Shown here one piece after another: positions 1 to 24,932 of a stretch of 64,000 nucleotides of DNA. The notes under the pieces were generated by a model. That model ran no database searches, was not told the origin of the DNA, and saw only the letters and a program-made list of their open reading frames with translations. The position numbers and the translations under genes are program-made. Positions within the stretch are counted from its first letter, which is position 1. Every line of letters starts with the position of its first letter. Source of the stretch: Marsupella aquatica. Its lineage: Eukaryota; Plantae; Marchantiophyta. The stretch spans positions 8,929,875-8,993,874 of the forward strand of contig OZ316891.1 in assembly GCA_973895155.1 (NCBI GenBank), in the 5' to 3' direction.

Positions 1-79
1 TTAAAATTTGTCAAAAATACCTATTTTGGATCGCACGTGGTTCCTAAGATTTTTGATAGTCAACCCCCCGAGCCCGGGA

Positions 80-1230
80 GCAGAGATTGGAGTTGCGGGA
101 GGAAGGGAAGGCATTCGCGCATTGGTCTCACCGTTTAGACCTGCTTAGACCTGCTTAGACCTGCAGGAGCACAGGTTGGAGTTGCAGGAGGGGAGGAGTT
201 TCGACACTCTTCCGAGCACATGTTTGAGTTGCGGGAGGGAAGGGAAGGCATTCGAGCGTTGGGGACCCCAATCATTGTGGAAGGCAAAAATGGTGGAAGC
301 TCGTGGATCGAAGGCAGTGAAAGCAACTAGTCTCACCGTTCGTCAAGGAGCTATGGGAGCTGCAGGAGGTGTTACATCAGGAGCTGCGGAGCTGCGGGAG
401 GAGTTGCAGAGCTACGGGAGGAGCTGTGGAGCTGCGGGCTGCTACTTGCAAGTTCAAGGCGGAGGTCGCAGGTAATGCTCCAATACGCTACTATGATCCT
501 TTGCTTGCCACATTTTGTGCTATGTCGTTTGTCTGCTCCGCATTCGCTGCTACATTTCCGATTGTAGCTCAATTTTTTCCCAGAGGTCAGCTGAGCAGAG
601 GTGAGGTCTCGTTGCTAGGAGGTGGGGAGTTCAATGTATGGGAGTTATGCGCGCGGTCCCGAGTGCCTAGGTTATCATCATAAGCACATCCGTTTGTTCC
701 TTTTACTTGCGCATGCGCCTGCTCCCTCCCCTCTGTGCTTCCGTCAAGACTTGACGTTCAATGTTTGGCTTTCTTGGCACACCACGTTACTGAGCGCTCG
801 TTGCTTCATTGGCATTGGTGAGGGTTGTGCAGCGTCAATGGCCCCCTCACGCTGATTACATGGCCATTGCTCCTGGCTGCATTGTGCCTTGGTAGCTTGG
901 TCAGATGAGGTATGAGGCATGCTCAAGGCTTGGGTTGCGCAGCTAAGATTATCACTGAGCTGCCATCACGGAAGGAGCTACGGGAGTTCAAGGGCTCAAG
1001 GCAATCCATGACAACCTTCAATCGACAACAAGCTACTGGTGATTGAGGAGTGGGAGGAGTGGTGAGGAGCGGGTGAGGACGAGCTGCAATCGGCAATCAA
1101 CTATAGGAGGTTCCAGAGTGGAGGAGTTACGGGAGTTGAGGAGCTGCAGATGCCATATATGTCTGCAAGTTCCCAACATGGAAACAGATTCTGGGCCCCA
1201 AGGATAGAGGCACCAAGGAGCTGCGGTAGT
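80..1230 (+). repeat. GC-rich low-complexity repeats (GGAGCTGCGG/GGAGTTGCAG motifs; TTAGACCTGC x3)
   Basis: TTAGACCTGC repeated in tandem at 135-164; many GGAGCT(G/A)C(A/G)GG units at 348-440 and 970-1230; GAGTTGCGGGAGG...GAAGGCATTCG duplicated at ~90 and ~226. Confidence 0.55.
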
Positions 1231-3245
1231 TGTCCATTGTTGGAAGTGGGAGCTTCATTGCACTGTCTTTCCAGTGCAACAGCCATTGTCGGACGGTGGT
1301 GGGAGGAACTAAGGACTTCCATTTGTGGGAGCAAGTTCGGGCTTTAAGGGTAAGCGCATGATTGTGTGATCATGCGATGGTTGGAGTTTGGGTTTCTCTC
1401 TGTTTTTTTGTCTTAATCACAACCTGGACCCTCTTTCCGACCTTGTCTCAATGTTCATAGAGCTTTACATGTGCCTGCAATATATGTGTTGTCTTAAAGG
1501 ATCCAGACAGATTGAATGTAATCAGTCTTAAAAACTATTCGTGCGAGGACTGCTCTGCAGAACAATTGAACACCATACACCTCAAGCTTATAATTGCAAA
1601 AACAAAATAAAGCTTACTATCTCCAAATGACAGTGTTCCTTTCTGTCTGCTATTGATTTGCTGATTTGCTGATTTCTGATTTCTGATTTTGTTATAGTGG
1701 AACATTAAACTTCTGTTGTGGTCTGATGATCTCCCTTCCTTAGCAACCATGTCATCATTCCAATCAATATATTGCCTACAGTCCAAGCAAGAGAGATGAT
1801 TATACCTCATAGATCGCTAATGAGCACTTCAGGACCTGTGGAACATAATGTCATCGTACGAGAAGAGTAAACAAGGACCTGGGCCTCCATCTGGTAAAAT
1901 GTGCTCGTGATTAAATGTAGCCAACCAACCCATGGTGAATGCCATCCTACGGATGTAACTGCGCCCACTTTGTGTATGTCTCCTGTAGTTCCTCCTTAGC
2001 ATCAATTTTTTGTGTCTGAGCTGTGTTCAGTTTTGATAAGTTATTGTGTTGTCTTTTTGTCGTCTGGCAATTATTGCCTCAAATGCTGCTGTATCTTTTT
2101 CTATCTCTTCCAGTATTTCATCGTGTTAGCATTGGCAACATTTGGTGTTTATGCGGCTGATGCCAAAAGTTTTCGGCTCGACCCTGTTTAATGCTTGAGT
2201 GGGCCAGGATTGTTTCTGCCTGAGTGGAAGGCTGGTCTGTTTAATGCTGCCTAATTGAACATAAGAATCTAAGAATCTGCTAGTAAGTTCATGGAGTTTA
2301 GGCAAATCAAGATGCAGCACCCTTGTACCCAAAAATTCTTTTGGCAATGTTTGCTCTGTTTGTTGTGTTGAAAACTTTATTGGCAGTGTCTGACCATGAA
2401 AGTCAGCCTGATGTTTTGCCATCAAATGATTTCAGTCTTTTACTTGAAACAAATGAATTTTGTTACAGAGAATGATCCAGAAGAAGTCTTTTCACGTTAG
2501 AGGAGTACTAACCTTCCTAGACCTGACGCAACTTGGGATGGATCATCGCCTGGTTATCTCCCGCTTTAGACTCTGGGTAGAATTTCCCGATGCTATGCAA
2601 GGACAAGGTGAGAACTTTATTCACAGCCTTGACCTAGGTTTACTTCAGGGCCACTGCATTTTTCTCCTTTGCTAGTTGCTGCATTTATCATTTGTCATGA
2701 TTTGATTGTGTGATTGTTTTGAAGTCGTAGCCGTGGTCAAAAGCTGGTCTATAAAAAACGAATTTAGGTTGCTGCTGTATATAAAGCACAGCAGGATCCA
2801 GAACTGGAAAACTGTCCCAGCAAATTTAAATTTGTAGCTCTCACTACTTGAATATATAAATTTTCCCTGATCGGTCTTAGCCTGCTACGCACAAGGCAGG
2901 CAATGAAACAAGTCTGTCCATTTTAAAACTTGAGAACCAATGCTTTGTTGAAACTCAATTGCTATTTGTTCTGTGTTGCCCTTACAGATTTTAAAAAGGC
3001 AGGGTGAGTGAGCACTGCTGGACAGCAGGCGAAGGCATATAGGTTGCAATATTTGTGATTGCTTCCAATCATAGGCCAAGGTTGTTTGCGCTGCTCAGTC
3101 CTAGTGCTTTGCCATCCATTGGTTTATGCTGACCCTTGTGGTTACATGTCATATTTTATGCTGCACCCTCATTCTTTTGTGTCATGCTGCACCCTGTTAT
3201 TCCTTCGTGTTTCACAATCTGATGTAGGTCTGAGTGTGCAGGACC

Positions 3246-3905
3246 ATGGCTCGCAATAAGCAAAAGGCCATGAATCGTTGCAGAGGTGAATCCTCTCAAG
3301 CACCTCAATTGTCCTTATATTCAGACATTGAGATTAACCAGAATAGTCCACATGTATGTGCAATTTGTGATGAGGGAGGGGATCTCATTGTTTGTGATGG
3401 GCCTTGCCACCGACATTTTCATAAGAATGTTTCCTGTCCTTTAGGTCAGCAATGGCTATGCCCAACTATATCCCTGATTGATGGCCATGTTGGAGAATGG
3501 CTTTGTGTTGATTGCAAGAATGATGAACATTCTTGCTTTAAGTGCCATGTGTCTGGAAAAATTGGTGAAGAGGTAAGAAAATGTCCAGACCCTCTCTGTG
3601 CCCGGTTTTACTGTCGGTAGTGTTTGGTTCCTGGCACAACATCATGTGGACTCCATATTTGTCTTACTTGTGGACAGGGGCCCAATGATGGGGCTAATGG
3701 CTTTTTGGTTCAGTGCATGAGGTGTCCTAAGGCATGGCACAAGGACTGCCTGCTGTTTATCCAGCAGAGGGGATTTGCCCATGATTGAACAATTTGGGAT
3801 CACTCAGCGCATGGGCAGCCCAAGAAGGGGATGTTTTACTGTCCTGACCATGACATTGACCCTACACTAGGCACTCCTGCTAGGAGCCACATATCTTGGA
3901 TTTGA
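3246..3905 (+). pseudogene. EDM2-like (NSD-type) composite PHD finger cassette carried by CACTA-1, two in-frame stops
   Basis: Read-through in one frame: CAICDEGGDLIVCDGPCHRHFH...WLCVDCKNDEHSCFKC...CPDPLCARFYCR*CLVPGTTSCGLHICLTC...LVQCMRCPKAWHKDCL...HD*TIW...MFYCPDHDIDPTLGTPARSHISWI*. Stops at 3618-3620 (TAG) and 3786-3788 (TGA). The H-x-ID-x2-LGTP-x-R-x-HI tail is characteristic of plant EDM2 PHD regions. Confidence 0.8.
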
Positions 3906-4506
3906 TTGAGGCTGGATGGAACACAAACTTGAGATAGAGCTTTTTGATGGTTTCACGTGGACTTAAACAATTTTCAGAGTGCTACCACATGTGGACTATT
4001 TATATGCAGTTTGATGAACTCCTCATGTATACACACTCTACGACAATGCATTGCGGATTGAGGCAATTAATTTTGAGAAATCAACTTTATTATCTTTTCT
4101 AGGGTAGGATTCCGATTTTCAAGCATGTGCTTTGAGTTTGACTTTCCTCCATATTGATGTCTAAACTTCACTTGTAAATTTGTCACTGGTGTCACAAATG
4201 TTACTTATTCCAGACCTGTCTACTCACATTCCTAATAGGCAAACAAATACCTGGAAATGATGAAGGCACAAAGATTTATGTTCATAGTATCATTCTGATG
4301 ACACTGTATGTGATGCTCTATTTGTATGCAAGAAGGAGAAGGTGCCTGACTACAGTGGATTTGAGAAACTGGGCTCTGTGGGTTTGAGCAATTGGACTGT
4401 GGTTGGCATCAGTTGTACAACTGTGACGGTAGGCCCAATTTTGTATGCATGTCACACTGATTTAGTTTGAAAATCATAGTTTGAATACAATTTCAATCAA
4501 GCTAGC

Positions 4507-7500
4507 ATGGCACAATTGCCACAGAATATGTTAGGTGTGGGTAGAACTCCAAAGTTGCCGCTCTTCCATCCAGGTAGAGTACAACATCGTGATGATACTT
4601 TGTGGGTTTGAGAACAGAAGGCCTGCCACAAGAGTGGGGACCATAAGATGTACTGCCCTTGTGTGAACTGCAAAGGGAATTATAGGACTAATCGGAATAT
4701 TGCTAGAAGGCACCTTATTAAACATGGTCGGTACCCCGCATGTCGAGTGTGGGTGGGAGAGGGACAGGACTCTTCTGATGAAGAGTGGGGTGTTGACTAC
4801 ATGTCACAACATGGCCCTAAGGCATTGAGGGTAGCAAACCTTCAGCAGGCAACCTGTGCACAACAGCCAATTGTAGATGTTGAAGAACATTTATTTGTAG
4901 ATGTTCCAGAGTATCCAACTGCGGATGTTCAAGAACATCCAACTATAGATGTGGAAGAACATATCAAGGCTCTACTGGAAGAAACGTTGTTGAGAACCAA
5001 TGAAGAATCCCCTGAGCATGAACTAGATGATCAGGACCGTTTTGACTTGGATTTTGTACTTGGGGATGATGAGAGTGAAGGAGGTGCCCATCCTGTAAAC
5101 CCCCTTGAAACCTCTGAAACTCCTGTGGAGATTGATCCTGCACAGTTATCTTTAGATGCAGCAATGCAACCTTTGTTCCCAGGCAGCAAAATAGATGTTG
5201 TGTCATTCATGTTGCTTCTGCTAAACATCTGTCATGGCCATGGATTCTCAAACAAAGGAGTGAATGCATTGTTGTCTTTGATGGGGGAGCATGGTATGCC
5301 TGCAGAGCATAATCTGCCCAAGAACTTATATGCTACAAAGCAGCTATTGAGAAAGCTTGGCTTGGATTATGAGAGAATCCCTGTCTGTGAGAAAGGTTGC
5401 ATGCTCTTTAGGGGTGAGAATGCCAAGTTAGAAAATTGTTTAGTGTGTCAGCAGCCCAAGATGAAGAGAGTGGGGAATTCATTATAGGCAAGGAAGGTGG
5501 TGCGATATTTCCCTATAATTCCCAGGTTGAAGAGATTGTATGCCACTGCTGGTACATCTAAACTCATGACTTGGCATCATGAGAATAGAAGCACAAACAA
5601 CATGGTTTGGCACGCAGCAGATTCAAAGGCTTGGAAGCATGTGGATACAAATATTGATCGGAAATTTGCAGCTGAACCAAGGAATGTGCGATTTGGGTTG
5701 GCACTTGATGGGGTGAATCCCTTTGGGAATAATTCCACAGCTTGGTCTACCTGGCCAATACTGTTGTTGAATTACAATTTACCTCCTTGGCTTACCACCA
5801 AGAAGTTCTTTGTCATGCTAGCTATGTTGATTCCACGACCTGATTCAGTAACAGAGGAACAACTGGACATAATATTGGGCCCATTCTATGAGGAGCTGGA
5901 GCTGTTGTGGAAGAAAGGAGTGCCCTGCTTTGACAAATTGCCATGCCCAGGATTGTCTCAACACTTCAACCTTAGGGCTGTGCTATTGTGGACAATCAAT
6001 GATTACCCTGCATATGGTTTAATATCTGGACAACAACACTCTGGATACAAAGATGTGTCATCTGGGGGAATGTGTGGCACGTGGTTCTAAGCACTTGCAG
6101 AAATTAGAGTACAGTGGCCACCGTCGATGGTTAGCAACAAGGCATCTATTTCGTAGACCAGACAATGCACAATACTTTAATGGTGCAATTGAGAGTCGAC
6201 CTACACCATGTAGAATGACAAGCTCTGATAGAAAGAAGTGCGGAGACGAGACAACAGAATATATACAGAACGAGACAAGCTCTGATAGAAGAAGAAGGGA
6301 GGAACCAAGGTTGAGGATGAGAAATGCCCCATAAAGGTGCATGGAGTGAAGAGGGCTACTGGTCTGTACAAGTTGCCCTATTGGAATGTAAGACTCCATA
6401 CTACTACAATGAATTTCTGCAATCTCTTCATATGACATTGAAATATATTCTCTTCATATACTTCCTGTACCCCAGATTTTGTAATTGTTGTATTCAATGC
6501 ACTAATTTTTGAATTGTGTCCACTACACAAACTACTGCCCAGTGATGCCAAAAGTTGTATTCAATGCCCTAATTTCTGAATTGTGTGTCCACTGCAGAAA
6601 CTACTCATTAACCATTGTCTAGATCCCATGCACTGTGAAACAAATCTTGCACACAACATTGTGCACACTATCATTGGGACCAAGGACAGTCCTTCTATGA
6701 GAGAAAACATGAAGCTCTTATAGGTGCGCCAACACCTATGGCTTGTACCCAATCCAGCTCCCAAGCGTAACGATGACAAATTGTTGATGCCCCCAGCCCC
6801 ATATTGCCTGAGCAAGAAGGAAAGAACAAGGTTCTTGGAGGTTTTATTGACCTTGAAAGGGCCCACTGGTTTTTCAAGTTCTTTGGCAAAGTGTGTTACA
6901 AAATCCAAGAAACTCTTTGGGTTGAAATCACATGATTTCCACCAACTCATGCAACAGATTCTCCCTCTGGCAACAATGGGATTACTTGATGAAGGGGTTT
7001 GCTTGGCCATAGCTGGGGTGAGCAATATCTATCGCCAGATCTGTAAGAAGGTGTGGGACCCTTCAATGTATGAGAATTTGATGATGGATGTTGCATTCAC
7101 TCTCTACATTTTGGAAATCCATTTTCCACCAAGCTTCTTTGATGTCATGACCCATTTAATGATTCACCTAGTGGAGGAATTAGACTTGCGTGGCCCAGTT
7201 ACAGGCAGATGGATGTACCCAATAGAGAGGAACCTGAAGGTATTGAAGGGTTATGTACGAAACAAGGCACGTCCAGAGGCTTCTATGGCTGAAGGCTATG
7301 TATTAGCTAAGTCTTTGGGATTCCTTTCGGAATACATGATTGATGCAAAGGGAGAGGGAAAACGAACCTGGGAGTTGGAGGAGGATGCTGGCGTTGCAAG
7401 CATTGTTTTGGAAGGGGCTGCAAAGGCGATAACTTTGGATTGGTCTGAAATGATGGCCATGCATCATTATATATTGGAGAATGAAGAGACAGTGGCTCCA

Positions 7501-8446
7501 TGGCACTGCAGGTACATAAACCCTAAATTATGTTGCCCCATTGTGTTTGTATATTCATGGTGGATCATGCACTAATGTCTTCAGTGTTGTTGTTGCCATG
7601 CAGGATATATGATGCTACCAATGAGACTGTTACCAAACGAAGAGTGGATTTCCGGAAGGAATGGATGAGGAAGCCTGCCAATGGAAGAAAACCAGTGGAA
7701 TTTCCCGCTGACTTCCAAGAATTGCCACCTTTAGTCAATACCCATAATTTTGAGAAAGAGTCTGAGCGGTCATTACTATCTGCATACTCCACACCACCTA
7801 GTTTGAAGGCACGACTGTATAGGGCATGCAGAGCCTATGGGCACCATTGGAGGACTATTCTATCCTTGGGGTGTTTGAGTGATTGTGATTCTGGTGCTTT
7901 CAGCACTTTTGATTTTGGGATGGCTTCTACCCCACTGAGAAGCGAGTGGACAGGTCTGGTGCAACCATAGAAGAATCTATACACTATGTAGGGGCCTTGA
8001 CAGATATCTTGGTACTGAATTACGGCAGCTTGAGGAAAGAGGTGATTATTTTCAAAGGGAAATGGGCAGATCCATCATGGACTCCTAAATCCTCTGCCAG
8101 TATGAGGTATTCCGAGTCTGGTCTTTGGCAAGTGAATTTCCATAGAGAATTGGGTGTGTCCAAGAAAATGGATTACGTTTTCCCAAAGCAAGTGGAGCAG
8201 GTTTTCTTCCACCCCAATGAGAAGGGGATAGCATGGAGAACAATCCTCCACAAAGAATCCAGGTCCACAAGGGTGTTAGGTGATTACACAGACGTTCATT
8301 TCCATGCTACAATGGAAAACAATGCCAAATTACACATCGAATTGGCTAAGGCCTGTAGGTCCAGATCAAATCCAGGACCAAATACTGGTCCCAAACGAGG
8401 CAGAGATGCAGAGGGATCTGCAAGAAAGGGCAGGCCTAAGCAGTGA
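4507..8446 (+). pseudogene. CACTA TnpD-like transposase (transposase-associated Zn domain, Transposase_21, DUF4218, DUF4216), disrupted
   Basis: ATG at 4507 is in frame with YCPCVNC...HLIKHG. Motifs RYFPIIPRLKRLY, RNVRFGLALDGVNPF, YNLPPW, WTINDYPAYG, YKLPYW, HCLDPMHCETN, FPPSFFDVMTHLMIHL, RWMYPIER, QVEQVFF. Introns at ~6388-6597 and ~7512-7603. Premature stops (e.g. 5485, 6721) and frameshifts near 6050 and 7945. Confidence 0.93.
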
Positions 8447-8989
8447 ATAGGTTTTAGGTGTGTGAAGTCCATAGATGGACTACATGTATGGACTATATAT
8501 GAAATCAGACTAATGGTTTACCCATTTGTGCAGTTGGTGAATGCAGCCTGTGAAAGGAAGATTGCAGGGGTTGTCACATTCTGTGAATCCTTATGAGGAG
8601 GCCCGAAATTGGAACATAGAGCATAATGTCCAAATTATGCGTGATCTAGGACTGGGGCCAGATTGCAAGCTGATGTGTGTGTTAATATGTCTGTTGCAAA
8701 TTTGATTCAGTAGATGGAGTTGTCAAGTTCCTTTTTCGTTTTCATATTCCAGATTGGTCTCATACTAGTATGGATCCTGTACATAAGTACTAGTGTTACG
8801 GTGTTGTAGATTCATTTTGCATGTATGTTTGATCTGCATTGGTGTATGTTGATGATTGCTTTAATTGTTCCTTAGAGGCCCAACCACACATGTACAACGA
8901 GAGAGAGGAATGCCTGCTTTGGTGAAAGGTACTTCAACTAAAACATTGCCAAAGAGGAGGAGCTCTAGACTATCAGAAGTTACCAAGGT

Positions 8990-11695
8990 GAACATGGCAG
9001 AGTCTGGTGATGATGGCTGAGGATTGTGACATTGGAGGGTCAGAACCAGAGAGTGAACAACAGGTAATGCTTGAACTTCATCATCCTAATAGGAAGGGAT
9101 CCTTGTCCCTTTTTCAAATTATATGTTGATATGCTTACGTTGTCCATGATATAGGTACAGAAACAAAATTGTGGTCCTAAGAAGATTGGGCCTGGTGGAG
9201 GTGGGCTGGTGAGATGTTGGAAAGACCCAGACACTGGACTCTTATATGAAAGTGAGTGGATTGTACTGTTCTACTTTTCAAGTGTGTTTGGAAGTTGATA
9301 TTCTACTTGGAAATGAAATTAATTGAAGTGCTTTTGATGTTGTGTGTTTGTTTAGTGGTTCCATCAGCATCTGAAGGCAGATAAGGTCAATCTGATGTAC
9401 TACATTCCAGAGGATCTTCAAGTAATACACAATCTGCTCGTCATGCATATGCAAGTGCATTTGCTGTACTTTTCAATCATGTACATAGTTTTTGATTGAA
9501 TGCATGTGTGTGCATTGCAGGCGGGGCCTCTGAGATGCGCAGGGAACAAAGGCATGCTAAGAAGCAGTTTGATAATATTGCCAAACAATGAAGGGATTGC
9601 GGAGAGTTGCCCAAACACATTAAAGTGAGTATTGTACTTTTTTTGAATGTAGATTTAGACAAATCTGATCCTCTCTGTTGTTGTGTGTATAAAACCTGGA
9701 CTCTGCATAAATTCTAGAGTTATGATCTGACATTGTCTGTGAAATGCAGATTTATGACAATGATATTGATGATTTTGATGGCAACAAACAATACTGGCTG
9801 GAGGAACTTTGTGGCAACGTACTCAGAGTCTTTGATGTATCAAAGCCAAAATGGACTGATCATCCACAAGTTCATACAACCACAGTGTGGAATAACATGG
9901 CAGCTGAGTGGGAGTATGTGGGTGGGGAATTTATTAAGACCAAATTCTAGAGTCATTGTCGTGGCATATTGAAGAGAGAGCGCCATAAAATGCATGTTTA
10001 TTGGAAGAAAGTTTTCAATGAGGATCCAACCAAACCTGGGCCATCTGGTGTTGATCCAAAGAAATGGGCAGCTTTGGTATCTCATTTTACCAGTCTAGCA
10101 TTGATATCTTTGAGTAAACAGATGACTGATAAAAGAGCATGAGTGCAAGATACCTCTCACTTTGGAAGAGGAGGGCATGCTGCAGCAGCAAAGAGAATGG
10201 TAAATTGTGGCCTATATCATTTTCACTATCAATTCTGTCTTGTTTGTGAATCTTGATGAAAACAGACTCTATGATTCTCATTCATTGTGTGTTTGAACAG
10301 AAGCAGAAGAGAGGATCAAGCCCAGGTATATCTGACCTGAAAGAAAACCATGGTAGTCAGGGTTCATTGCCAAAGGTGACAATGAGCTCATCATTGGCAA
10401 GTGCAGAAGGTCAGACTGGTAGTTTTGTGGGAGCAAAGGTGAGCCAATCATTGGCAAGTGGGGAGGGTAAAAGTGCTAGCTTACTGGGGCGAGGAAACAA
10501 ACATGGATCAGCTGTGAGTATTGTCATACCAATTTGATTTGTACATCATTCTCCATTTGACAGAGCTAGTGTTGTGTCGTTTGTAAGTTTGACAGTGAGA
10601 ATGTTGTGTTGGTTGTGGTTCATTTACAGACCCCACATTCAAAAGAAGAGATCACTGCCATTGGGGCTATGAAATTGGATGTTGATGAGTTGAAAGGCAC
10701 TGTGAGAGACTTGACAAACATGATGACTATGTGGATGGCACATCACACCAGTAATGCACAAGTTCCAACAGTTGTACCTAGTCACAGTAAGTTGACTACA
10801 GCTACCAAACAAGGTAGTAAAAAGCGATCTCTTACTTTTTCAGGTGATAATGAAGGTAAAATTCTCTATCATGTATACACTGTCCATTCAATGTAATTAT
10901 TGTGATGTGTATATGTCATTGCATGTTTATAATGTTCTTGCATGTTTTTAGTGTGATTATATGTTGCTGGTGTATACATATTTGTTTATGCATTTCTTTT
11001 GTGTGTGTTTTATGACAGCATCTTTAGGGGAGCCTCCAGTGTCGCAGGGAAGACCAACTGACACAGCTAACAGTACTCTGAAGCAAACTGAATTGGAAGT
11101 GAACCTTTTGCCATCTAAGTTGCCCAAAGAAGCCATTTCAAATGCCTTTCAGTTGCCAGAGGATAAGTCAAATCAGTTGACACCAGATATAACCCCAGAA
11201 TCATTTGAGTTGCCAAAAGAAACTCCTGTTCCAAGTGAGCAGGATGACACTCCATCAACTAGAAAGGGAAAGAAGAAAAGGAAGAAAGGATCCTCAACAA
11301 ATGCATCACCTGCACAGAAGAAACCAATGCAATCTCCTAACCCCATTGCAAAGGTAAATGTGTGTTTGATTTGAGTGTTCTTCTATCTTTCAATTTTTGT
11401 TTATTGCATTTTTAACAAAATGTGTTGTTCATAGTTTGCAAGAGGAGATTTGGTGAAGATGAAGAGCGTTGTGGACAATTCCATGATAGTGGCAGAAGGT
11501 GAGGTGACAAGGTTGCCAGGAGAAGATAAGTTTCATTGTGCAGATTTTGAAAGCCCTTTCTTGCGAGTGCGTGTGATTGAAGTGTTTGTAGATGTGGCAT
11601 TGCCATTTGCCAATGCAGGGGAGAACAAGTCTAGATTATCTGATGTGAAAGGGATGAATGCCCTATGGAACTCTAGATTGCTTAAGAAGCAATAG
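8990..11695 (+). pseudogene. CACTA-1 second gene (TnpA-like), multi-exon, with C-terminal Tnp1/En/Spm-like domain; partly disrupted
   Basis: Series of short GT-AG-flanked exons (~9521-9624, 9750-10199, 10301-10513, 10630-10855, 11019-11353, 11435-11695). The last exon, IVAEGEV...FHCADF...RVRVIEVFVDVALPF...KGMNALWN, resembles the Transposase_23-type domain. Position downstream of TnpD is typical. Exon limits are approximate. Confidence 0.65.
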
Positions 11696-12049
11696 AAATA
11701 GCACTCTGTCAAGAAACACTAGACATGATAGAATGACACCTCTGTTTTTCTATAAACATGCAGAGTGATTGGTATGTCAGGTTGTAACAATTGACAATCT
11801 AATATTATTGATGTCAATGTAATTTTGTTTCATAAATTTGCATTGAGTTCAATAGTTACTGTGAGAGTTATGAAGGTATCTTGTATGAATGTCAATTGGA
11901 TTTGTGATATATATTGAATGTTTCTTTAAGTTTTCATTCAGCAAATCTATTGAATGGCTTTGTAATGTATGATTTTTGATTTATATGAAGTTTTATCTAT
12001 CATGATCACTTAAATTTGAATTTCTCCAAATCATTGAATACTTCACCTG

Positions 12050-12758
12050 AATGACTGGCTAGAATGACTGATATAATGGTCATTATCCACAACTATCTTT
12101 GTGACCAATATGACTCAACTCGGGTCATTAAAGACATTGACTAAATGATTCAAAGAATGACATATACAATGACCGTTCTCATGGTCATTATAAACAAGTC
12201 CACTATGACTCACTTTATGTCATTCAAGACATGTCATTAATGACTAATGTATATCTTTACGTGCCTCCTCCCAATTGAACCACGTGTCTCAATATGACTT
12301 GTTTATACTGTAGTCATTTTGGACACGTCTAAAATGACCCAAATATATTGCCAAATGGTGAATACTCTTTGAACCACGTGTCACTATTTGATTTATTATA
12401 TAATGTATGTCATTTTGGACAAGTCCAAAATGACCAATGTTATTTGTTTTTTGATTGCCACGTGTCATTGTGTGATTGGGTACAGGGACTGTCGACGCTC
12501 AACGGCAATTGACCATTGATGGTGATTTGTGTCGTCATTTTGGACCGTTCAATATTTATGACCATATCATAAAAATGGTCATTTAGGATAGCATGAAATG
12601 ACCACATGTTTTTAGCGTCATTTGTCCAAAAGGACCGTGACCAAAATGTCCGTTGTGACGCGTCTGGAAAGACGAGAATGATTGCGTCATTGTTTTGTTA
12701 AAAAAACCTGATTAATAGTCATTGTTTCCGTCATAAAATACATTGTTTTCTACTAGTG
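12050..12758. repeat. CACTA-1 right subterminal repeat array (ATGAC/GTCAT in both orientations) plus TIR
   Basis: Repeated AATGAC, GGTCAT, CCACGTGTC and GTCATTTTGGAC motifs packed up to the terminal TAGTG. Confidence 0.8.
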
Positions 12759-13881
12759 AATGTACCAGGAAATTTCACTGGTGTTTTTGATGCAAAGAAA
12801 GAATCACTGAGCATGGAGATTGTGTGCAAGAGTTTGGGCACAGAGATCGGTCAATTGATCGAGAACAATCTTCGCACAAAATTTTGTCTTGAGCTTTGTG
12901 AAACTGGCAACATTGACTACTACAAGTCAAAGTTGCAAGATAATGTTATGAAGATGAAAGCAAAGGAGAAAATGCCCATTCAATTAAACCGCGACTACTT
13001 CAGAGGTCAAGAAATACAAGGTGCAACTGTATGACAAGATGGAGAAGATCACAAGGCTCAAGAAATAACTTGCCTAAAAGGATGGTCAATATAGTCAAAT
13101 AATGCAAGTTCAAGAGGTAGATAAAGTCATTCTTGATTTAAAGAATCAAGTTGCATCACAAGAGGTGATCATAAGCAATCCGCAAGAGGAGATTGAGCAA
13201 ATGAACACTGCTGAGGTGGATGGTCAGTCTGACAAGAAAAAATCAAGATGCAGCAACTACAATTATATGAATTTGCACATGATTGATCCTACAGGACAAT
13301 CTAATCTTTTTCCGGATGTGGAAGTTGATCCAGAAGATGTTGATAAATTTTTTGAGAAATGAAAGAGCGATGAGAGTATGGCCCAATTTGTTCAAGAAAA
13401 TGATGGAAGATATACTTGGTGCTTCTATCCATGGGGTCCTGAATCTGTTTCCATTTTGGGAATATGCGGTCACTTATGGCATCATGCTTGCTTGTTTAGG
13501 TGGATGAAGAAGAGCCGGAAATGTTGATGCCGAAAACCATTTCATGAACGAGAGTATAAGCAACGGGGTTGGTTGAAACAAATGCCACCAATGGAGACAC
13601 AACAAGATAGTGAAGCAATGACTCAAGATAGTATTACAATGGCACACATTGATTCAAGGTCCATTGACAATTACGTAGTCAATGAATACAACTTGTCAAA
13701 TGGTAACTTTGACAATTTTTTATTCAGTGGTACATTCCAACAGTGGAAGGAATATGCAATGGCTAATCGACCAACAATAGATGAGCAAAACATGCAGCGA
13801 TCTATTCGTTGTCATCGCCGTCGTCAGCAACTGGCGGAAGTGAAAGCAGAAACGCAAGACAAGAAGAACCGGAATGACTAG
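12759..13881 (+). pseudogene. Decayed coiled-coil + RING-H2 finger gene, 5' part cut by the CACTA-1 end
   Basis: Reading the 13102 frame through stops gives ...GRYTWCFYPWGPESVSILGICGHLWHHACLFRWMKKSRKC*CRKPFHER. This is a C-x-H-x2-H-x2-C-x3-W RING-H2 core with the first Cys apparently mutated (TGT>TAT). Upstream segments are coiled-coil-like (12759-13200). The frame is already open at the TIR junction. Confidence 0.65.
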
Positions 13882-14969
13882 ATTGTATACACAATGTTTA
13901 GTATCGCAGATTTTATTACATAGTATTTCTTGCATAAGACATGCACAATCCGGTATAGTATATCACAGTTTATCGTATAGTATTAGCCTAAATATAATAC
14001 CTAAACAGAAGTCAAGATTGTGAGGAAAAGTGTTTTGTGTTATTGTTCTCATTTTCTTGCAACTGTCAATCGAATTGATATTGTCTTGTCATCCATTGGA
14101 CCAGATCTGCGCTATGATATTCTTCAAATGCACCAACACGAACATCTTTGTTTGATGTATATATGGATTTGTCATGTTTTGCCTTTTATACATATTTAGT
14201 GTTGGAGAAGCATGTTGTCCCCACTGTGCATCATCAGGTAAGTTGCGCAAACAAAGTTGGTGTTGTTATCTCCGGAAAAAGCTCTGATGCAACACCTCGT
14301 CGTTGAAATAAGTAGGAAGTACTTGCTTGGACATTATTTTGTAGATTCAATATTGGGTATGTGAAGGATGGGTTTGGTTGGGAAGGCATTACAAGTTTGC
14401 ATCAAATGAGTAGTCCTTGTCATCCTGAATTTGAGACTCATCGATTGTAGGAAACATCATCAAATCCATATCATCTTCTCATTCTTCGACATCACTCATT
14501 TCAGTATCTGGTGGAATATGAGCCAACATGTCACCATCATTGTGTAATGACAATCCTTGCAAAGCCTCATCTGCGTCATCAATTGTATAAAAATCCTCCA
14601 CATCATCCTCTCCAAGAACCGCACACCCTGGGCCCTCACTAAGGAAAATGTAATGAGATATACCTGTGACCAAAGCCTTCCCAAGTACCCCTTGTTACAT
14701 TTTGGAGTCTAAACATTTAAATCTATCTTGTTCGTTCTAAATAGAATTTCAGTCATATATAAAATCCTCCTAGGTTATTATAATCTTTGATATTTTAGGA
14801 TTTAAAATACCCTTCATTTGTTATAAAAACAAGGTTTAGAGGATGCATATAAGCGTCTTCTTCATCGTGCCATCCATTTTAGGGCAACCTCCCATTGAAC
14901 GACTTCAAGAGCCCAAAACCCAAGTTACACCCAAATAAAAGAGGGTCGGGGAGGGAGTTCACTACAACA

Positions 14970-15395
14970 CTACCTACACCTTTTGCGAACTTGAAAGCAT
15001 CGCAAACAACAAAGGAAATCAAAAAACAAAACTCGCCTTTGCGAAGTATCGCGCATCGCAATAGAATCGCAAACTGCGAAGCCCAAAGGTTCGCACCCGG
15101 TCTTTCGCAAGACCTTTGCAACGCCTTCGCAACTTGTGACACTAATAGAATCGCAAAGGACTCACATTTAAGCGACTCCGTGGGCGTCGCGAGAGGCTTG
15201 CGATAATAATCAAGCAGTTCAATATTTGCAATCCCAGGAGTTTGGTAATATGTTTGCGATATTAAGTGAATGGTAGTTATGCCATGAAGATCGCTTCGCA
15301 TTTTTGTGAACTTATGTGGTTTGCATAATGTTTGCGATACCTTTAGTATGGTAAATATGCGATTTGGGTTGTTTGCATAGGTTTCGCAAGATGTC
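14970..15395. repeat. CACTA-2 left subterminal repeats (TTGCGAA/TTCGCAA, ATCGCA)
   Basis: Many copies of TTGCGA/TCGCAA in both orientations directly inside the TIR. Confidence 0.8.
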
Positions 15396-15645
15396 TTAAG
15401 GCTAGGGTTTAGATTTAGAGTTTTGAATTATGGTTGGGGTCTTGTTGGCCAACACGGAGAATGAGGTCTGAATCAAAATTGCTTTATAGAAAATTGATAG
15501 GTACACAAAAATTAGGGTTTCCTAAACCCTAAACCCTAGATGGGTGTCATATGACAAGCTAGGTCCCTATAAGACTACCCATGATATCAAAACTATATAC
15601 TACACTAAGTAAATGGGCATCCCATAGGCACTACACCACCAAGCT

Positions 15646-17572
15646 CTAGAATGGGGTCCTCCTACTCCTTGTCGCCGGCCTCTTCCCCTTGTCTCTCTTG
15701 CGACGATCCGGACGTGGCACAGGAGGTGGTGCTGGCTGCTCCTCCACATCTGGTTCCTGCTCGTCCTCGTCCTCATCCTCTTCCTCCCCCTCCTGCTCGG
15801 AAACTCCTCCTACTGGTCCAGATCCACTACTCCCTCCTACCTTGGGCCCCTTTGTCGTGGTCCCCTCATTGTTCTCATCGGTGCTGCTGGTATCACTGGC
15901 ATCCTCATCATCCTGTTTGCACAGCACAACGCCAAATTGGTTTAGGTTTACGGAATGAAAAGATAAGTGGATTGGGTGGGAAAAACTGAAGGGGATACAT
16001 GCACTTACAGTCGCCAACTCTGCGTCAACCAAGTCAAAGAGATGTTTGGCTCCATGCGCAGCTCCTATCTCCATCTCTTTTGCTGTTATCTTCCTGCGGT
16101 ACCTCTTATACTACCACAACCAAACATTCCAAAACCAAAATCAATCGAGGTTAATATGCTATAAACCCAAGAAAAATGCATGGAGGTGCTAATAGGGTGC
16201 CCCCTAGAAGACAAAACTGGGCTCAATAACCCTTAGCAGTATTTTTTAAACATAATACACACTTGCGAAACTCCCCACTTTGCAAATTCAAATAAATTGG
16301 CTGCTTGCAAAGTAGTTTGCGAAGCGGGTTAGTTCGCAATAGCTTCGCATCTACAACTTTAAAAAATGCCATGATAGACTTTGCGAAACATTTGCGAAGC
16401 AACCCGCATCGCAAAAGCTTCGCAAACTCTATTTTTAAAAAATTCCAAGAAATCTCTAAGGCACGCAATGTGTCAGGGTGACCTAAAGTACAAGGCAGGC
16501 CGTAAGAAAGAAACAAGAGGTATGCAAGGGGGCATTCCAGGTTTGGATCGCAATTGAAAGCAAGGAAACAGAAGCAGGGGAGGAGAGGGCCCACTCACAA
16601 AGTGTGCTTTGAGGCCGGGAAGTCCACCTTGGCCCATCTTGTGCGTGGGCTTGGGCCGTTTGCTGACTCGCTCAGCTGCAAGGATGAATTTTTGGGGTGG
16701 TGCCCCCACTTCATCCACAATGTGCTGCATGTGAGACACCTTCTCAACCATTGCCTTGAGGTCTCGGTCGGACTTCCCGGCCTTCTGTGCCTTGGCTTCC
16801 ATCTCCTTCCAAAAGAGAAGGTTCCTGGCAGCTCTCATCTGCACCTCCACTTTGTAAAAGGCATTCCACACATCCTCAGTGAATTGCAGTGGCCTCCTCA
16901 CATTTCTGTACTCCTCCAAGTTTGTCAGGTAGGCCCTTACCTTCTTCCTATCATGGTACCGTGCTTGAGACATTGAATTGGAAATTCTATCTGCAAGCCA
17001 CTGTTCATCAATCTCTGCTCCATTTTGGAATGAATCTTTGATTTGACTCATTACTTTCTTCTGGTCTGCCTTGCTGAGTTTCCCCCACTCAACTCCTTGT
17101 GCAAAATTGGAGCGCACCATAAGCCTGATAGTGCTCTTTGCCCCGGTGTAGGCCAGTTCAGTAAGAATGCCTTCGATCAAGGCAATCATAGGCAGCTTCT
17201 TCTTCTCTTCCTCCTTCTTTCGCTGCTCCTCCCGCTGTGCTCTTACTCATCTCGTTCCTCTCTCCTCCTCTTCTTTTCTAGGGCAGCAGGTGAGACTACT
17301 CCTGCCTTGGCCCTCTCCTCCTTCTTACGCTTCTTCTCTCTTGCCTTCTGTTGAGCTGCACTCCTTTGCTCCTCCTCCCTTGCAATGTTCCCTGCATCTA
17401 CTCCCGTTTGCAAGGCTTGCCCTAGGATTGCACTCAAAGAAGCAATCCCTGCTGGTATAGTCAAATCTAAGTGGCTCAACTGTGCTGCATTGAGGTGCTC
17501 AGCCATCAAATCGGTCCATCGATTCCTCTCCTGCTCCCCATTACCTTCATTCCCATTGCCACTGTCACTCAC
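15646..17572 (-). CDS. CACTA-2 accessory (TnpA-like) gene, divergent from the transposase; one apparent frameshift
   Basis: ORF 17572-17243 joins, after a frameshift near 17245, to VRAQREEQRKKEEEKKKLPMIALIE...RRPLQFTEDVWNAF...KPTHKMGQGGLPGLKAHF. A GTGAGT donor follows near 16596, then further exons ending in an acidic/basic tail at 15646. The P-x5-W and H-x2-G-x-GG motifs resemble Ptta/Transposase_24-type proteins. Confidence 0.6.
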
Positions 17573-18915
17573 CCTGCCCCATCACCTCCATTTGCTCCAC
17601 TGGAATCCATAGCTAAGCCACCCCCCGAGCGCATGCGAGCTCCCTTCTCCCTCCCTACGCTTGAAATTTGTCAAATGCCGCTGACTACGCCACGGCCGAG
17701 TGCAAAAGTACAAGCGGGAAAGACTTTCGAAGCAACCTGTTTTGCAAGTTGCGATCCTTCTAGTTTCACATGTAGTTTCTCAATTTTGCGAAACCATTGC
17801 GACGTGAAAGGCTTCGCAACACCTTCGCTCTCTCGCAGAAATGCTCTTGGGCTCTGTTTTTCTGAAGGTCGTGCGAAAGCAGCAGCTTCGCAAAACTCAA
17901 TTCTAATTTGTGATGGTATTTGCGAAGGAAGCGGCTTCGCAAGACATTGGCAACTCGTCCCGGGGGGAATGTTGGTTTCATTTGAAAGGGTTTTTTTCAA
18001 AGGTGAAGTGGATCCCTCTATACTCATATTTGGAATGCTTTTTGGCCATGTTTTGGGTGTTAGATAATAGTTGAAGGCGGGTTTGAAGGGTTAGGCAGAT
18101 TTCAAGTTAATGGGTTATGTATGGTGTTGGTTTAGGCTAAGGTTTGGGTTTACATTAGTTTAGAAGAAACAATAAAGGTGTGGGATTTGGTTTACAAGAA
18201 ATAAGTAAGGTTTAGGTTTAGGGTTTTAGGGTTTGGGGTTTTTAAATAGAAAGGTCTCTAGGGTTGAAGAAAGGTTTGGGTTTGTGTGTAAGTCAGATTT
18301 AGGTTTAATAGGTAGTATGCGGTTTGGGGTTGAAGGTTTGGATAAGACAAAGCAAGGTTTCATGAGATTTATATTGCAGCCTTTTGGGTTTAAGAGAGGT
18401 TCATTGGGTTTATGAATCAAAAAGGGATTGGCATGGGTTTTGCTAACAAAGGAGGGGAATATATGATAGCTTGCAGGGTGCGGCACTTTTTGATGATTTG
18501 ATACTAATGCATATGCATTGTGAGAGCCCGAGCATCTGAAAGGTAAACATTGCATGATCGGCTCAAGTGTTCCTTTCATGTACTTAACACTTTTGGTTGC
18601 CACTATGTATAAAGGGGACATGTATATAGGGTTTTTTGTTCTTGTCTGGTCCAGATTATTGTGCTTACATATACATGGAATGGTTGCAGCTTTTCCCTCA
18701 TACTTTCAGATTGGGTTCATTAATTATCTTAGAGCCACAAGACCTATTGGCACTGCTGAGCCCGGGTCTCATAATTAAAGGTACCTTTTTTTATTGTTAT
18801 GGTCATTTTGGTTTGGGTTTCTTGTCATCATTATTTGGGAACTTTGATTTATATCATTTTGTGGTATGTTTTGGTCATAACATGCCCATTTTAATTATAT
18901 CTTGTTACAGGGGAT

Positions 18916-20068
18916 ATGTCTTCATCTTCTGAAATCTCCACCACAAACTCATCCTCCTCTGATGAAGATACACCACCTCCACCTCAACATCACACGACCG
19001 CACCTCCTCCACGTGGTCCACCCCGTCAACTTTGTGAATGTTCCAGATGTGTGGGTCAGGTTTCCCAAAAATCTTACATATGTGCCCAACATATTGAGAG
19101 ATATGGGCGTTGTGGACGTCATATGGCAGGGGCTTCTTCATCTCATATGGTAAGTGTTATGCCTTAGTTTTCCTACCCTATTCCCATTACTCAATGGTTG
19201 AAGGTTTTTAATTTCACACCTACTTTTGTTTGTTTTGGTTTCGGTGGAATAGGTATCCAATAGGCCTAGACCTGCGGCACAAGCACCCTATGTCCCATCA
19301 CAAGGTGTTCTAGATGCTATAGGCAATGCATTCTCAAAAGCCTTGGGTCTAGCGGCAAGGCCCACCAGTCCTAGGGAAGTTGGGGCTGAGGCTATTGTCC
19401 CAAGAGGGAGAAAGCGTTCCAAGAGGCGGGCCCGAGGGGATACTGATTTGTACAAGGCAGTGGTTACGGGTAGGTGGGGTGATTGTGAGTTCAGTGGCAG
19501 ATGTGTCCCTATCATCAAGGACTGGGATCCTGAGACTCTTGGTTTGCCACAACAGCTTTCCTACGGTGCGGAGGTAGAGGTTTGGGGTAGACGTTGGGTT
19601 ATCAAACCTTCCACACTTGGGGATAGACATGGCTATGGAGTTTTTGCCTGTGAGGACATCATTGTGGACGCCGAGAGTGGTAGAGGTGGACGCGGCCGAG
19701 AGGGGCCTACTTTGTTTCCTTATGGTGGACCCATCTACAAGAGAAGACATTGGAACATGATCCTTGCACAACACCCTGAGTGGAAGACTTATGCATTGGA
19801 CATGGATACTTTTGATGGAAACACTAGAAGGTATAGTGAGAAGCGTGTCATAGATGGGGACCCCATACGGACTGGGAATATTGTTGGTTTCATAAACAGT
19901 ACCGTGGGGATTCGCCCTAAGCGTAGGCAAAATTGTGAGTGGGTTTTCATTGAGGGTCCTCCGCCAGCACCTTATGGCCAGACATATCATCATGACCATT
20001 GCCTAGTTGTAGCGACGAGGACCATTAACTCGGGGGATGAGTTATTTACTCACTATGAGTGGGATTAG
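18916..20068 (+). CDS. Two-exon gene inside CACTA-2: transposase-associated Zn domain + SET domain (~349 aa), intact
   Basis: Exon 1 18916-19149 (LCECSRC...CAQHIERYG) ends at ATG|GTAAGT. Exon 2 19253-20068 follows a T-rich ...AATAG acceptor; both are phase 0. SET motifs: IKPSTLGDRHGYGVFACEDI, FPYGGPI, TYALD, IDG...GNIVGFINS, NCEW, LVVATRTINSGDELFTHY. Confidence 0.85.
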
Positions 20069-20244
20069 GGTTAAGTTAAGGGTCATAGGTGGTATGTTGC
20101 ATATCAAAGGACACTACATATGGCCTTTGGCCACATTTTGTATTTGCACCACAACCAATATTATTTCATTTTTTCACACCCCTAGCCCATTTTTGTGTGT
20201 GTTCTCTTTGCAATATAACTTTCAATTGTTTGCTTTGTTTTTAG

Positions 20245-23200
20245 AATGTGCGACCCTCTCCAAATATGTTACCATGGAGATTGAGAGCAACATATCGAGA
20301 AATGGGTATGCCAGAAGAAGGACATGGATCAGAGTCGTGCACTCCTCATCAAGTGCTAGTGGAAGCAGTAACCCTGATGAAGAGGTACCTCGGACGGATG
20401 AACAAGTAACTGATGACCAGGATAGAGCCATGGATGACTTCATGGTTGATTGCTTTGGTGCCGACAACCCTGGTGATGACCTTCCCAATGAAGGGCAGGT
20501 GCCCCCCAATGATCCACGCCCAAGACATACCCCTGAGGGACAACACCAATGGGAAGAAGCAGAGGAACATGCGCGAACACCTATCTATGAGGGTGCTCGT
20601 TTGAGTCGTCTTTCAGCCATCTTGGGGTTGATGAACCTACAGGCCAAACACAAGGCAAGCAATGCCTTGTTATCTGATATGTTTGCACTTTGCCATGACC
20701 TTATGTTACCCACTGAGAATGTGTTGCCAGCAACTTGGAAGGAGGCAAAGAGTGTTCTCTCATCTATTGGCATGGAATATCATATTGTTCATGCATGTGT
20801 GAATGATTGCATGTTATTTCATGGGGCCAATGCAAACATGACACAATGTACAACATGTGATGAGCCTCGCTATGACCCCAACATGCTAACAAAGAAGGTG
20901 CCAAGGAAGGCTGTTCGTTGGTTTCCCATCATTCCTCGGTTGTTGCACATGTATCGGTGTTCTGACTTGGCAGAGTTGATGGTATGGCATAAGACTCATT
21001 GATCAGAGTCTGGTGTCATGCGGTTGCCAGTTGACTCCCCTGCTCACAAACATATTGAGGCAACATGGCCAGACTTTGCACATGATCCTCGCCATGTGAG
21101 GTTAGGATTGGCATCTGATGGAGTTAGCCCTCATTCACTTGGAGGAAAGGGGCAACCTACATCAGTTTGGCCTGTGGTTGTCATGAATTATAACCTCCCA
21201 CCATGGCTATCCATGAAGAAGGGGTTCCTTTTATTGTCTTTGATTATCCCAGGTCCAAAAAAGGTGAAGAACTTTGACACTTACTTGGCACTATTGGTTG
21301 GAGAACTTCAAAAATTATGGAATGGAGTGTGGGCATATGATGGCAGGAAAATTACAGGAGGTTTTCCACGTGTCTTTCAATTGAGAGGGATCATTTGCTG
21401 GACAATGCATGACTATCCTGGTAAGATGACTTCCATGCCATTTGCAACCCTTCAATAATGTGTAGTTCCTATTGTTGTTTCTCATGTGACAACCCTAACA
21501 TAAAGTTTGCATGGTTTGATTTCTTCTATGTAAGCAGGGTTTGGTTTTGTCTCTGGATTGCAAACTCAGGGGTACAAAGCTTGCTCTACTTGTGGCCCAA
21601 GCTTAGAGGACATGGCCACATATTGTTCATGGATTAGAAAGATTGTTTATATTGGGCATACAAAGTTTCTTCCCATGGGGCATGAGATGAGGTTTGACCC
21701 ACTTCTATTCTCCTCCTTTGACATGCCATTTGGTGATGAGCGTGAAATTCCTGATGCAACAAGTTTTGCACATTGGAAGTCACTAGCTGATAGGGTGGCA
21801 GACCCAAATGATTCCTTCACCTTTGATAGGACAGGTTTGACCAGGTGGAGTATACTAGCCACTTTGCCCTATTGGTTTGAGTTGAAGATCCGCCATCTTT
21901 TAGACCCCATGCACATAGAGGGAAATGGGGGGAAGGCTTTGATAAAGCATTTTTATGGGGAGAAGGACACTAATTTTAGGGAGGCATGCGAGGAGATGGA
22001 AATGCATCCAGATGGAAATGCATCCAGATGTTTGGGTGACAACTGATCCTATCATAGGTGTGGAGAATCGTCCTTCTGCTCCTTGGGTGTTGAGTGTTGG
22101 CCAAAGACGTCAATTTTGGAACCGTATAGGAGAGATGCGGTTTCCTACAGGCTATGGTGCCAACCTTCGAAAAGCTTTTGGGATGGAGGACAATCACAAG
22201 TGGCCACGATATCTGAAGACACATGACTATTATCGCCTATTGCAGCATATATTGTCAGTGGCAATTATAGGTATAGGGAGTGAAGAAGTGCAAGATGCCA
22301 TCTGGTCATTGGGTCGTTTTTTGAGATGGATATGCTCAAAGGAGATATATGTAGAAGAGATCCCTAGGATGGAGGTATTGGCAGCTGAGGTGGTATGCAA
22401 GTTGGAGAAAGCCCTTCCTCCTTCCTTCTTTGATTGTCAGGTTCATTTACTTGTGCATCTTGTGCGGGAGGTTGCCATTGCAGGTCCAGTGCATTGTAGA
22501 TGGATGTATTGGCTTGAGCGTTACATGGCGGTGTTGAAGGCTTATGTACGTAACCGTGCACGGGTGGAGGGAAGCATAGCTACAGGATACTTGGCAGCAG
22601 AGAGTATGTTTTATTGTAGTAACATCTTGGCCACCATTGATCCTACTTGTCCACGTACTTGGATGGAGGAAAGAGAAGAGGAGGAGGACCGTTTAACAGG
22701 TGCCACAAAAACACGCATGTTGACATCAACAGAGTGGTCACAGTTGACAACATTTATGTTGAGTAATAGTAATATCATGGAGAAATGGAGAGAGTTTTAT
22801 GAGAATGCCAAGAGAACAAGTCAAAGAGCAAGAATTTTTCCTAAGATGCATGAGTATATGAAGCAAAAGTTGCTTGAGTTGGATGACATGGTGACACAAG
22901 GAGGAGATGTGTCCCACTTTCCTACCATCACAGATGACATTCGGACCATTGTTCATGGCCCTTTGAGAGTGGTGACATCCAAGACGGCTATGTGGACACA
23001 AGGGAGACACTTCAGGTCCACTAGTACCTAACCTTTCTTCCTCTATTAATTCATGTAGACCTTATTTTGATTAGTTATTTCTATTGTTTAAAAACTTTCT
23101 ATTATCATTAATGACATCCATAACTGTAATGTTGGCTTCTATATTTATGCCATAGGCCATGTGGGTTTTGGCTATTTAGGGATGGGTGTCATATTTTGAT

Positions 23201-23750: not shown

Positions 23751-24204
23751 AACATATTTATATGCACTTGGGTCCAGCCTAGACATTTGTTCATGTTATA
23801 TTTGATTTGTTCATATTTGGTGATATAAAAAAAGTATTGTCTATATTTATATTTGCCATTCACTTTTGAATGAGTCATACTCATGACATATGTATTGTAT
23901 TGTTTTATTGTGATCACTTGTGAATTTTACATGCAACTTTCTATCTAACCTCTGTTGCTCAATATAACTTTATTTCCTACTTATTCCATAATTTTCATTC
24001 TCACCCTCGTGTTTCCCTCCTCCGTGGTACGTTTGTCCCTCCTCCTCCCTTCCTCTTTCTCCTCCCTCCTTCCTCTTCCATTGTACTCCCTCCCTTTTCC
24101 ATCCTTCATTGTACCTCCCTCCATCCTCCCTTCCTCTTCCCTCCTGCCCCATCCATATATTGGACCATCCACCCTCTTCATTGTCTCACCTCACAATAAT
24201 CTTA

Positions 24205-24696: not shown

Positions 24697-24932
24697 TGTT
24701 GTAGTGGTTTAGGGTTTAGGCTTCTCGTGTGAGAACCGATAACTACGAGAGACTTATCTTGTCACATACCCTAAACCAATGATACTACGATAAGTGGACC
24801 AATCAAAAGTTGACATCTATCATAGAGTATTTACATACCCCACCAGCTAATGTAATGGCAACCAAATTTACAATAGTATGAATCCATTCCTTCTAACTAG
24901 ACTATGCATATATGGTGCCCTAGTAATTCATT

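Follow-up and report, generated by a model that had tools for sequence, protein, structure and literature searches.

Does a CACTA transposon of the liverwort Marsupella aquatica carry a chromatin-reader gene of its own and, if so, is that gene a working part of the element or a scrap of host sequence swept along with it? The question arises from a short reading frame near the left edge of the 64,000-nucleotide stretch analysed here (the window), which an earlier note, made from the letters alone, had described as a composite PHD cassette of the EDM2 type standing upstream of a CACTA transposase. We find that this triple-PHD gene is real, borne by the element and kept by selection, and apparently undescribed; the copy in the window is dead.

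Translation of 3246-3905 reproduced the frame as it had been read from the sequence: 219 codons and a terminal stop without introns, three Cys/His fingers, the quoted motif at the C-terminal end, and two premature stops on the way. The open-reading-frame list covers only the first half of the gene, as had been seen, with 3234-3620 as its sole entry there, and TnpD, which had been placed about 600 bp downstream on the same strand, starts with an ATG at 4507, 601 bp beyond the stop. In the read-through translation, with the stops entered as X, PHD-1st_NSD, PHD_NSD and PHDvar_NSD all score above their curated Pfam cut-offs, in that order, and 24 of 24 aligned Cys/His ligands are kept. NSD3 appears as a match over residues 36-167 (E 2e-10), and the alignments of NSD2 and NSD3 alike stop at residue 167 of the 219, whereas a Marchantia protein of 1628 aa from the EDM2 group (36% identity) aligns right through the C-terminal motif. 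Because only the plant EDM2 group extends to that motif, 'EDM2-type', the label already proposed and compared here with both EDM2 and NSD, is the right one. The finger count stands in a qualified form: we count three units of eight ligands, whereas the literature credits EDM2 with two and a half atypical repeats (PMC7529245, excerpt).

Table 1. Features of the triple-PHD gene and of the CACTA element around it, in window coordinates
Feature	Position	Strand	Remarks
Putative left arm of element	1..3245	+	1-440 at high depth; 441-2640 much lower and variable between copies; without left TIR
Stand-alone EDM2/NSD-type triple-PHD gene	3246..3905	+	219 codons; dead copy (two premature stops)
N-terminal basic peptide	3246..3275	+	H3-mimic pattern M-small-R-x-K; predicted disordered
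Finger 1 (C38-C90)	3357..3515	+	Closest solved sequences AIRE PHD1, TRIM24, CHD4; without Asp three residues before C1
Finger 2 (C97-H137)	3534..3656	+	Family-specific His-to-Cys ligand swap; 7-residue linker
Premature TAG, codon 125	3618..3620	+	Private to window copy
Finger 3 (C139-H202) and EDM2-type C-terminal motif	3660..3902	+	Motif beyond reach of NSD alignments
Premature TGA, codon 181	3786..3788	+	Private to window copy
TnpD transposase gene	4507..8446	+	Transpos_assoc, Transposase_21, DUF4218, DUF4216; broken by stops and frame changes in window copy
Multi-exon coding region in TnpA position	8865..11695	+	Inferred from position and exon-like frames
Right subterminal repeats ATGAC/GTCAT	12051..12734	.	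26 copies in 12001-13000 against 0-3 per 500 bp elsewhere in 1-13500
Right terminal inverted repeat	12745..12758	-	Starts CACTAGTAG; followed by AAT (expected target-site duplication)

Several lines of observation support the placement of this gene inside a CACTA (En/Spm) element. A terminus of the CACTA/CACTG type lies at 12758, accompanied by subterminal repeats, and TnpD combines Transposase_21 with DUF4218 and DUF4216; four pieces of the region in the TnpA position, scanned against Pfam, gave no matches. The earlier note had recognised that a left TIR between the PHD gene and TnpD would put the gene outside the element, and the interval from 3906 to 4506 holds neither a TIR nor subterminal repeats. 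Plus-strand CACTA pentamers occur in 1-4600 only at 2842 and 3865, neither resembling the right TIR, and BLAST of the right end against the same stretch returned matches of 19 bp or less. The left TIR is absent from the window, which begins within the left arm; an inverted 10-mer at position 34 resembles the right-end repeats and, because it recurs at 6078, is given little weight.

Contigs from public sequencing runs, chosen by matches to 2900-5500 (the PHD gene and the start of TnpD) and aligned to window positions 1-13200, agree with this placement. Their depth, which is not equivalent to copy number, is 72.6k over the PHD gene against a TnpD median of 86.9k in run X1 (0.84) and 9.2k against 12.3k in X3 (0.75), close in both runs to that of the element's 3' third, and just beyond the right end it falls to 6.2k and 2.3k, respectively. 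The stretch 441-2640 is far lower in depth, and contig joints (198 to 1061, 1091 to 1758, 2169 to 2660 and 3109 to 3207) step from 198 to 3207 as expected of a variable left arm. In X5 and X7 the depth over conserved parts of TnpD greatly exceeds that over the PHD gene, pointing to many related CACTA elements that either lack the gene or carry a version too distant to align. Among the contig pieces listed, none bridges the PHD gene and TnpD as one record, and it is for the close copies that the CACTA setting is established; none of the distant members could be linked to a CACTA. A 69-bp inverted pair (1149-1217 and 13415-13483, 84% complementary) has one arm in the left arm of the element and the other past its right end; many contigs have loose ends at 1149, and the pair is probably a small separate repeat.

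The stops themselves had been explained as single C>T changes, and the sister copies bear this out: intact relatives have Q and R at the two codons, and the run contigs read C at 3618 in 37783 of 37888 depth in X1 and at all depth in X2, X5 and X6, and C at 3786 at all depth in the same four runs. One X2 contig covers the entire gene, with 12 differences from the window copy. X2-type and X6-type alleles differ by 11 silent changes, 7 replacements and no stops, a pN/pS of 0.17-0.24 under transition weights of 1-4 (binomial p 0.0003-0.003). This estimate compares, codon by codon, the majority alleles in collapsed contigs of two runs whose organisms are coded differently, and it involves 18 changes with inferred phase. 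Between the window copy and the X2 type there are 4 silent changes, 5 replacements and 2 stops, and the difference between the two patterns is non-significant (p 0.26). The selection check proposed for family copies, run here as pN/pS, thus gives about 0.2, which supports purifying selection on the frame as judged from these alleles and, with sense codons at both stop positions in sister copies, disposes of the worry that the cassette is a single-copy, neutrally decaying piece of host EDM2.

A wider family extends this picture. Three intact relatives of 213-225 aa (81, 71 and 52% identity) share the window protein's last five residues, and all 24 ligands are retained in each of the four rows, at identities down to 52%; further searches enlarged the family by about twenty members, some partial or broken, with identities as low as about 35%. 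Intact members are 213-226 aa long, with PHD-type families as their sole Pfam matches and a conserved stop, which falls 180-194 residues after C1 in most full-length members. In a careful tree, built from 49 rows selected by hand after two others had been dropped for want of the finger-1 pattern, the 16 family rows form one clade (support 100/99, stem 0.95), and a quick tree of 146 of 159 proteins (7 removed by hand, the remainder too short) agrees on a separate family clade. In the careful tree the family's placement among EDM2-group proteins is not firm, and a position as sister to short liverwort relatives is not rejected (p-AU 0.6). Identity to the nearest host proteins is just 30-36% (30% to the named EDM2-like protein, 32-36% to liverwort relatives), and liverworts supply five of the eight nearest named long relatives; short PHD-only EDM2 relatives also occur in grasses and Marchantia.

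Family relatives were found in none of 55 candidate stretches from viral contigs and none of 40 from prokaryote genomes. A metagenome scan of 175 stretches yielded 20 loci, including a 46%-identical member with one early stop (L001, 529-1200) on a 1867-bp contig with about 670 bp downstream of the gene; tblastn of the window's TnpD pieces against the 20 loci returned no match, the L001 contig stopping about where TnpD would start. Open frames in sister copies, the excess of silent changes and the separate clade argue for an old, selected accessory gene rather than a decaying piece of EDM2, and the family itself is old and not a fresh capture.

Within this clade the PHD module has been remodelled, as a residue comparison of 16 family rows (some near-duplicates) with 57 others reveals. 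Finger 2 has Cys as its third ligand in 15 of the 16 and His in 55 of the 57, and the linker after this swap is 7 residues long in 15 of 16 family rows against 12-35 in 56 of 57 others. An Asp three residues before the first Cys is present in 35 of 57 others and in 0 of the 14 family rows covering the site; in its place, every family row has a Gln before finger 1 and nearly every one a His. In PHD structures an acidic residue in this region holds unmethylated K4, and with the Asp missing, H3 binding may be altered or lost. Finger 1 retains acidic residues and a strand resembling those of AIRE, TRIM24 and CHD4; before Phe-His, at a position that we take to be that of the cage Trp in H3K4me3 readers, 14 of 14 family rows have His or Gln, and the aromatic cage of such readers is absent. 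Since the diagnostic changes fall at or near the predicted histone-binding finger, EDM2's preference for H3K9me2 cannot be assumed: the reading of this mark on which the earlier note drew is reported for Arabidopsis EDM2 (PMC7472560, excerpt), and its transfer to a cassette with a changed finger-1 region, ligand and linker does not follow. The family protein likely still binds chromatin, with a preference that may differ from EDM2's.

Structure prediction is compatible with a reader fold. The model of an intact member (P0002), built on a 73-row alignment, reached pLDDT 86 and pTM 0.81, against pLDDT 32 from a 4-row alignment, and its residues 1-27 are predicted to be disordered and undocked in the monomer. 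In fold searches the model came nearest to multi-PHD chromatin readers, and it matched the tandem fingers of PZP and NSD in part only (Foldseek query TM no higher than 0.29, top VIA Z 5.5); an EDM2 structure was absent among the fold-search matches. With the 28 N-terminal residues as query, the PDB yielded no sequence match; modelling of the N-terminal peptide in complex with the PHD module of the same protein returned no usable answer (score 0.02, mark 0.34), and an Atlas search gave leads under 0.9 throughout.

What might such a protein do for its element? Our tentative preference, held with a little less than even confidence, is for a chromatin-reading adaptor, predicted to bind H3 tails in the chromatin of the element itself and so to keep the CACTA transcribed despite silencing; we infer that the protein is nuclear, that finger 1 binds H3 and that silencing is countered. 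The PHD module would dock on H3 tails of the element's chromatin, and the adaptor would sustain transcription through chromatin silenced by the host. Because the PHD protein contains neither a catalytic nor a DNA-binding domain, its specificity would have to come from a partner, and the protein encoded in the TnpA position would be the simplest one. Precedents for the model come from EDM2, whose PHDs bind H3K9me2 and whose complex, the AAE complex (PMC7472560), favours full-length transcripts through heterochromatin (excerpts of PMC7472560, PMC7529245, PMC9292364 and PMC10241880), and from VANC, an anti-silencing protein encoded by a transposable element (PMC13317346, excerpt). In Arabidopsis Spm, TnpA activates elements while H3K9 methylation stays (bioRxiv 10.64898/2026.08.24.746577, excerpt), so that a CACTA must be transcribed through this mark and would have a reason to retain a reader. 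Besides the missing Asp before finger 1, three points count against the adaptor: in EDM2, read-through depends on parts and partners that are missing here (PMC7529245 and PMC7472560, excerpts), EDM2 represses some DNA transposons, Mu1 for example (PMC3632883, excerpt), and TnpA by itself is already anti-silencing in Arabidopsis Spm (same bioRxiv excerpt).

The module could instead serve transposition, reading the histone state so as to guide or stabilise TnpD/TnpA on donor or target chromatin and thereby shaping insertion, not expression. Chromodomain integrases and RAG2 are analogues of such a tether. The gene immediately precedes TnpD and shares its strand, which would suit this role, as would the PHD finger listed inside the transposase of Rehavkus elements (PMC6446971, excerpt). 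Yet the PHD protein is read in a frame of its own that ends at a conserved stop, and among the eight longer relatives that a length-extended search (1708 candidates) brought up, not one has a transposase domain in its precomputed Pfam list; we think the tether unlikely.

A further possibility starts from the protein's N terminus. The window protein begins M-A-R-N-K-Q and matches H3(1-9) (reference sequence from PMC9677696, excerpt) at 5 of 9 positions, and P0002 matches at 7 of 9. The published pattern for H3 N-terminal mimics (H3TMs), iM-Z-R-X-K with Z small, occurs in 48 of about 21,000 human proteins, and tested human H3TM proteins bind H3K4 readers in vitro (PMC8166343, excerpt). A usable leader is present in 21 of the 25 family sequences that include finger 1, and 9 of the 21, the window protein among them, start M-[ATS]-R-x-K, in line with the sequence definition of an H3TM. 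Matches to H3(1-9) add up to 46, whereas composition shuffles yield 21.8 +/- 4.1 and in none of 20000 cases attain 46, although the shuffles overstate significance because the family rows are related; positions 3-9 alone give 27 matches against 13.8, and 0.34% of permuted motifs equal the H3 score. The pattern is missing at the first Met in 12 of 21, several members carrying the motif a few residues inside, and L001 has a basic leader with A-R-x-K two residues inside. T3, Q5 and T6 are poorly conserved and position 6 is mostly Lys, which fits a plain nuclear signal.

Outside the family (166 relatives), the same start is found in 7 of 44 short proteins and 0 of 122 long ones. These seven (P0091, P0092, P0114, P0162, P0189, P0191 and P0193) are EDM2-derived PHD proteins of 320-386 aa; six come from grasses, and those placed in the tree fall within seed-plant EDM2, suggesting one independent origin. 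Several long EDM2-group proteins outside the seed-plant clade (P0012-P0016, P0021, P0032, P0069 and P0082) start M-A-R, most with Ala-7, and the long Marchantia protein shares 5 of 9 positions with H3(1-9). Possibly the EDM2 of non-seed hosts already starts like H3, and part of the family's match may be inherited. We consider real H3 mimicry by the family N terminus doubtful.

In the adaptor model the H3-like tail would bait host H3K4/K9 readers, writers or erasers, or act merely as a nuclear signal. Were it, or the PHD surface, to act on its own as a decoy in trans, soaking up H3K4/K9 enzymes, readers and EDM2 partners nucleus-wide and without targeting, then the frequency of the pattern in the family, its enrichment over shuffles, its presence in short and not long outside relatives, and the in vitro behaviour of human proteins with the same start (PMC8166343, excerpt) would all find a place. 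Against this stand the 12 members without the pattern at the first Met, the weak positions that fit a nuclear signal, the M-A-R start of long host relatives and the retention of every zinc ligand, which is beyond what bait needs, and we judge an untargeted decoy improbable. More improbable still is self-restraint, in which the module would read silent chromatin and dampen the element, limiting harm to the host, as the repression of Mu1 by EDM2 might suggest (PMC3632883, excerpt), but the PHD gene rides in a family found at high depth in some runs. A captured Pack-CACTA-type EDM2 fragment, amplified with the element and decaying neutrally, might account for the two stops and near-neutral changes of the window copy, and such capture is known (PMC13317346, excerpt), but this passenger is very improbable and largely ruled out by sister copies free of the stops, with an open frame and a pN/pS of about 0.2, by host identity of only 30-36%, and by a clade of its own with conserved start, end and ligands.

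A second CACTA lies nearby at 14960-24706, with both ends present and a GTT duplication. Between its TnpD and a small Cys/His exon (18916-19149) stands an uninterrupted SET-domain frame (19253-20068, plus strand), which scores above the Pfam SET cut-off and 0.97 in the Atlas against a streptophyte SET cluster; this is possibly a transposon-borne histone methyltransferase in the same position as the PHD gene. Exon-like frames at 15650-17580 (minus), on the strand opposite its TnpD, are probably its TnpA-position gene; the largest piece gave no Pfam match. The rest of the window holds broken hAT-type transposase pieces with DUF659 (25359-26646, minus), an uninterrupted short-chain dehydrogenase frame with a GC content of about 49% (29454-30083, minus), three host genes on the minus strand (a cellulose-synthase-family gene with an N-terminal RING-like finger, 33929-38326; a DUF179 gene, 42706-43548; and an Nrap-family gene, 53219-58469), and, at 45475-46210, about seven units of 78-88 bp arrayed in tandem, together with a 142-bp duplication.

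These elements invite a more speculative synthesis, to which we give limited credence: plant CACTAs may have captured an EDM2 reader long ago and made of it a two-part tool, the PHD cassette sitting on the element's nucleosomes and the H3 mimic recruiting or diverting H3K4/K9 machinery, with the SET-bearing neighbour as a second case. If true, this would be a transposon-encoded histone mimic in plants.

Searches of the full-text literature, a corpus that leaves aside subscription journals and Repbase reports, found no description of a CACTA-borne EDM2-type PHD gene or of an H3 mimic in a plant transposon, and excerpts of PMC11738798 and PMC11982613 hold nothing on transposon mimics or EDM2. 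Known anti-silencing by plant transposons (VANC, TnpA) works through DNA motifs and DNA methylation; a selected histone reader borrowed from the host pathway for transcription through heterochromatin would open another route, one that works on histones. The protein is small (about 220 aa) and confidently modelled, so that reader function, H3 mimicry and any effect on the transposon are directly testable, and the family offers a natural variant for mapping the EDM2 residues that set histone specificity.

Set beside known systems, the protein most resembles EDM2 and ELP1, which share its series of atypical PHD fingers and its C-terminal motif. It differs in its size of about 220 aa, in its His-to-Cys swap, 7-residue linker, missing Asp before finger 1 and separate clade, and in lacking the replication-foci, acidic, ELP methyltransferase-like and proline-rich parts, whose absence means that the transposon protein is not itself an EDM2. 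PHD1-3 of NSD1/2/3 show the same three Pfam families in the same order and are the best PDB sequence matches, but their alignment ends at 167 of 219 and the transposon protein has no SET or PWWP domain. Like VANC of VANDAL (MuDR) elements (PMC13317346, excerpt) and TnpA of Spm/CACTA, it is an accessory protein of a plant DNA transposon that plausibly works against silencing; those proteins recognise short DNA motifs and cause DNA hypomethylation (excerpts of PMC13317346 and bioRxiv 10.64898/2026.08.24.746577), whereas the PHD protein is a host-derived histone-reader fold in which no DNA-binding domain was found. With H3TMs (PMC8166343, excerpt) and viral histone mimics it shares a start of Met, small residue, Arg, any residue, Lys and predicted disorder, and differs from H3TMs in being encoded by a plant transposon, in its union with a PHD module in the same chain and in having the pattern at the first Met in only 9 of 21 members. 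Finally, it resembles Pack-CACTA and Pack-MULE fragments, and the Ulp1 capture in KIU VANC genes, as host-derived coding sequence within a TIR element; unlike most such passengers, and like the KIU case, it has been kept, a whole old frame under purifying selection in a TnpD-bearing element.
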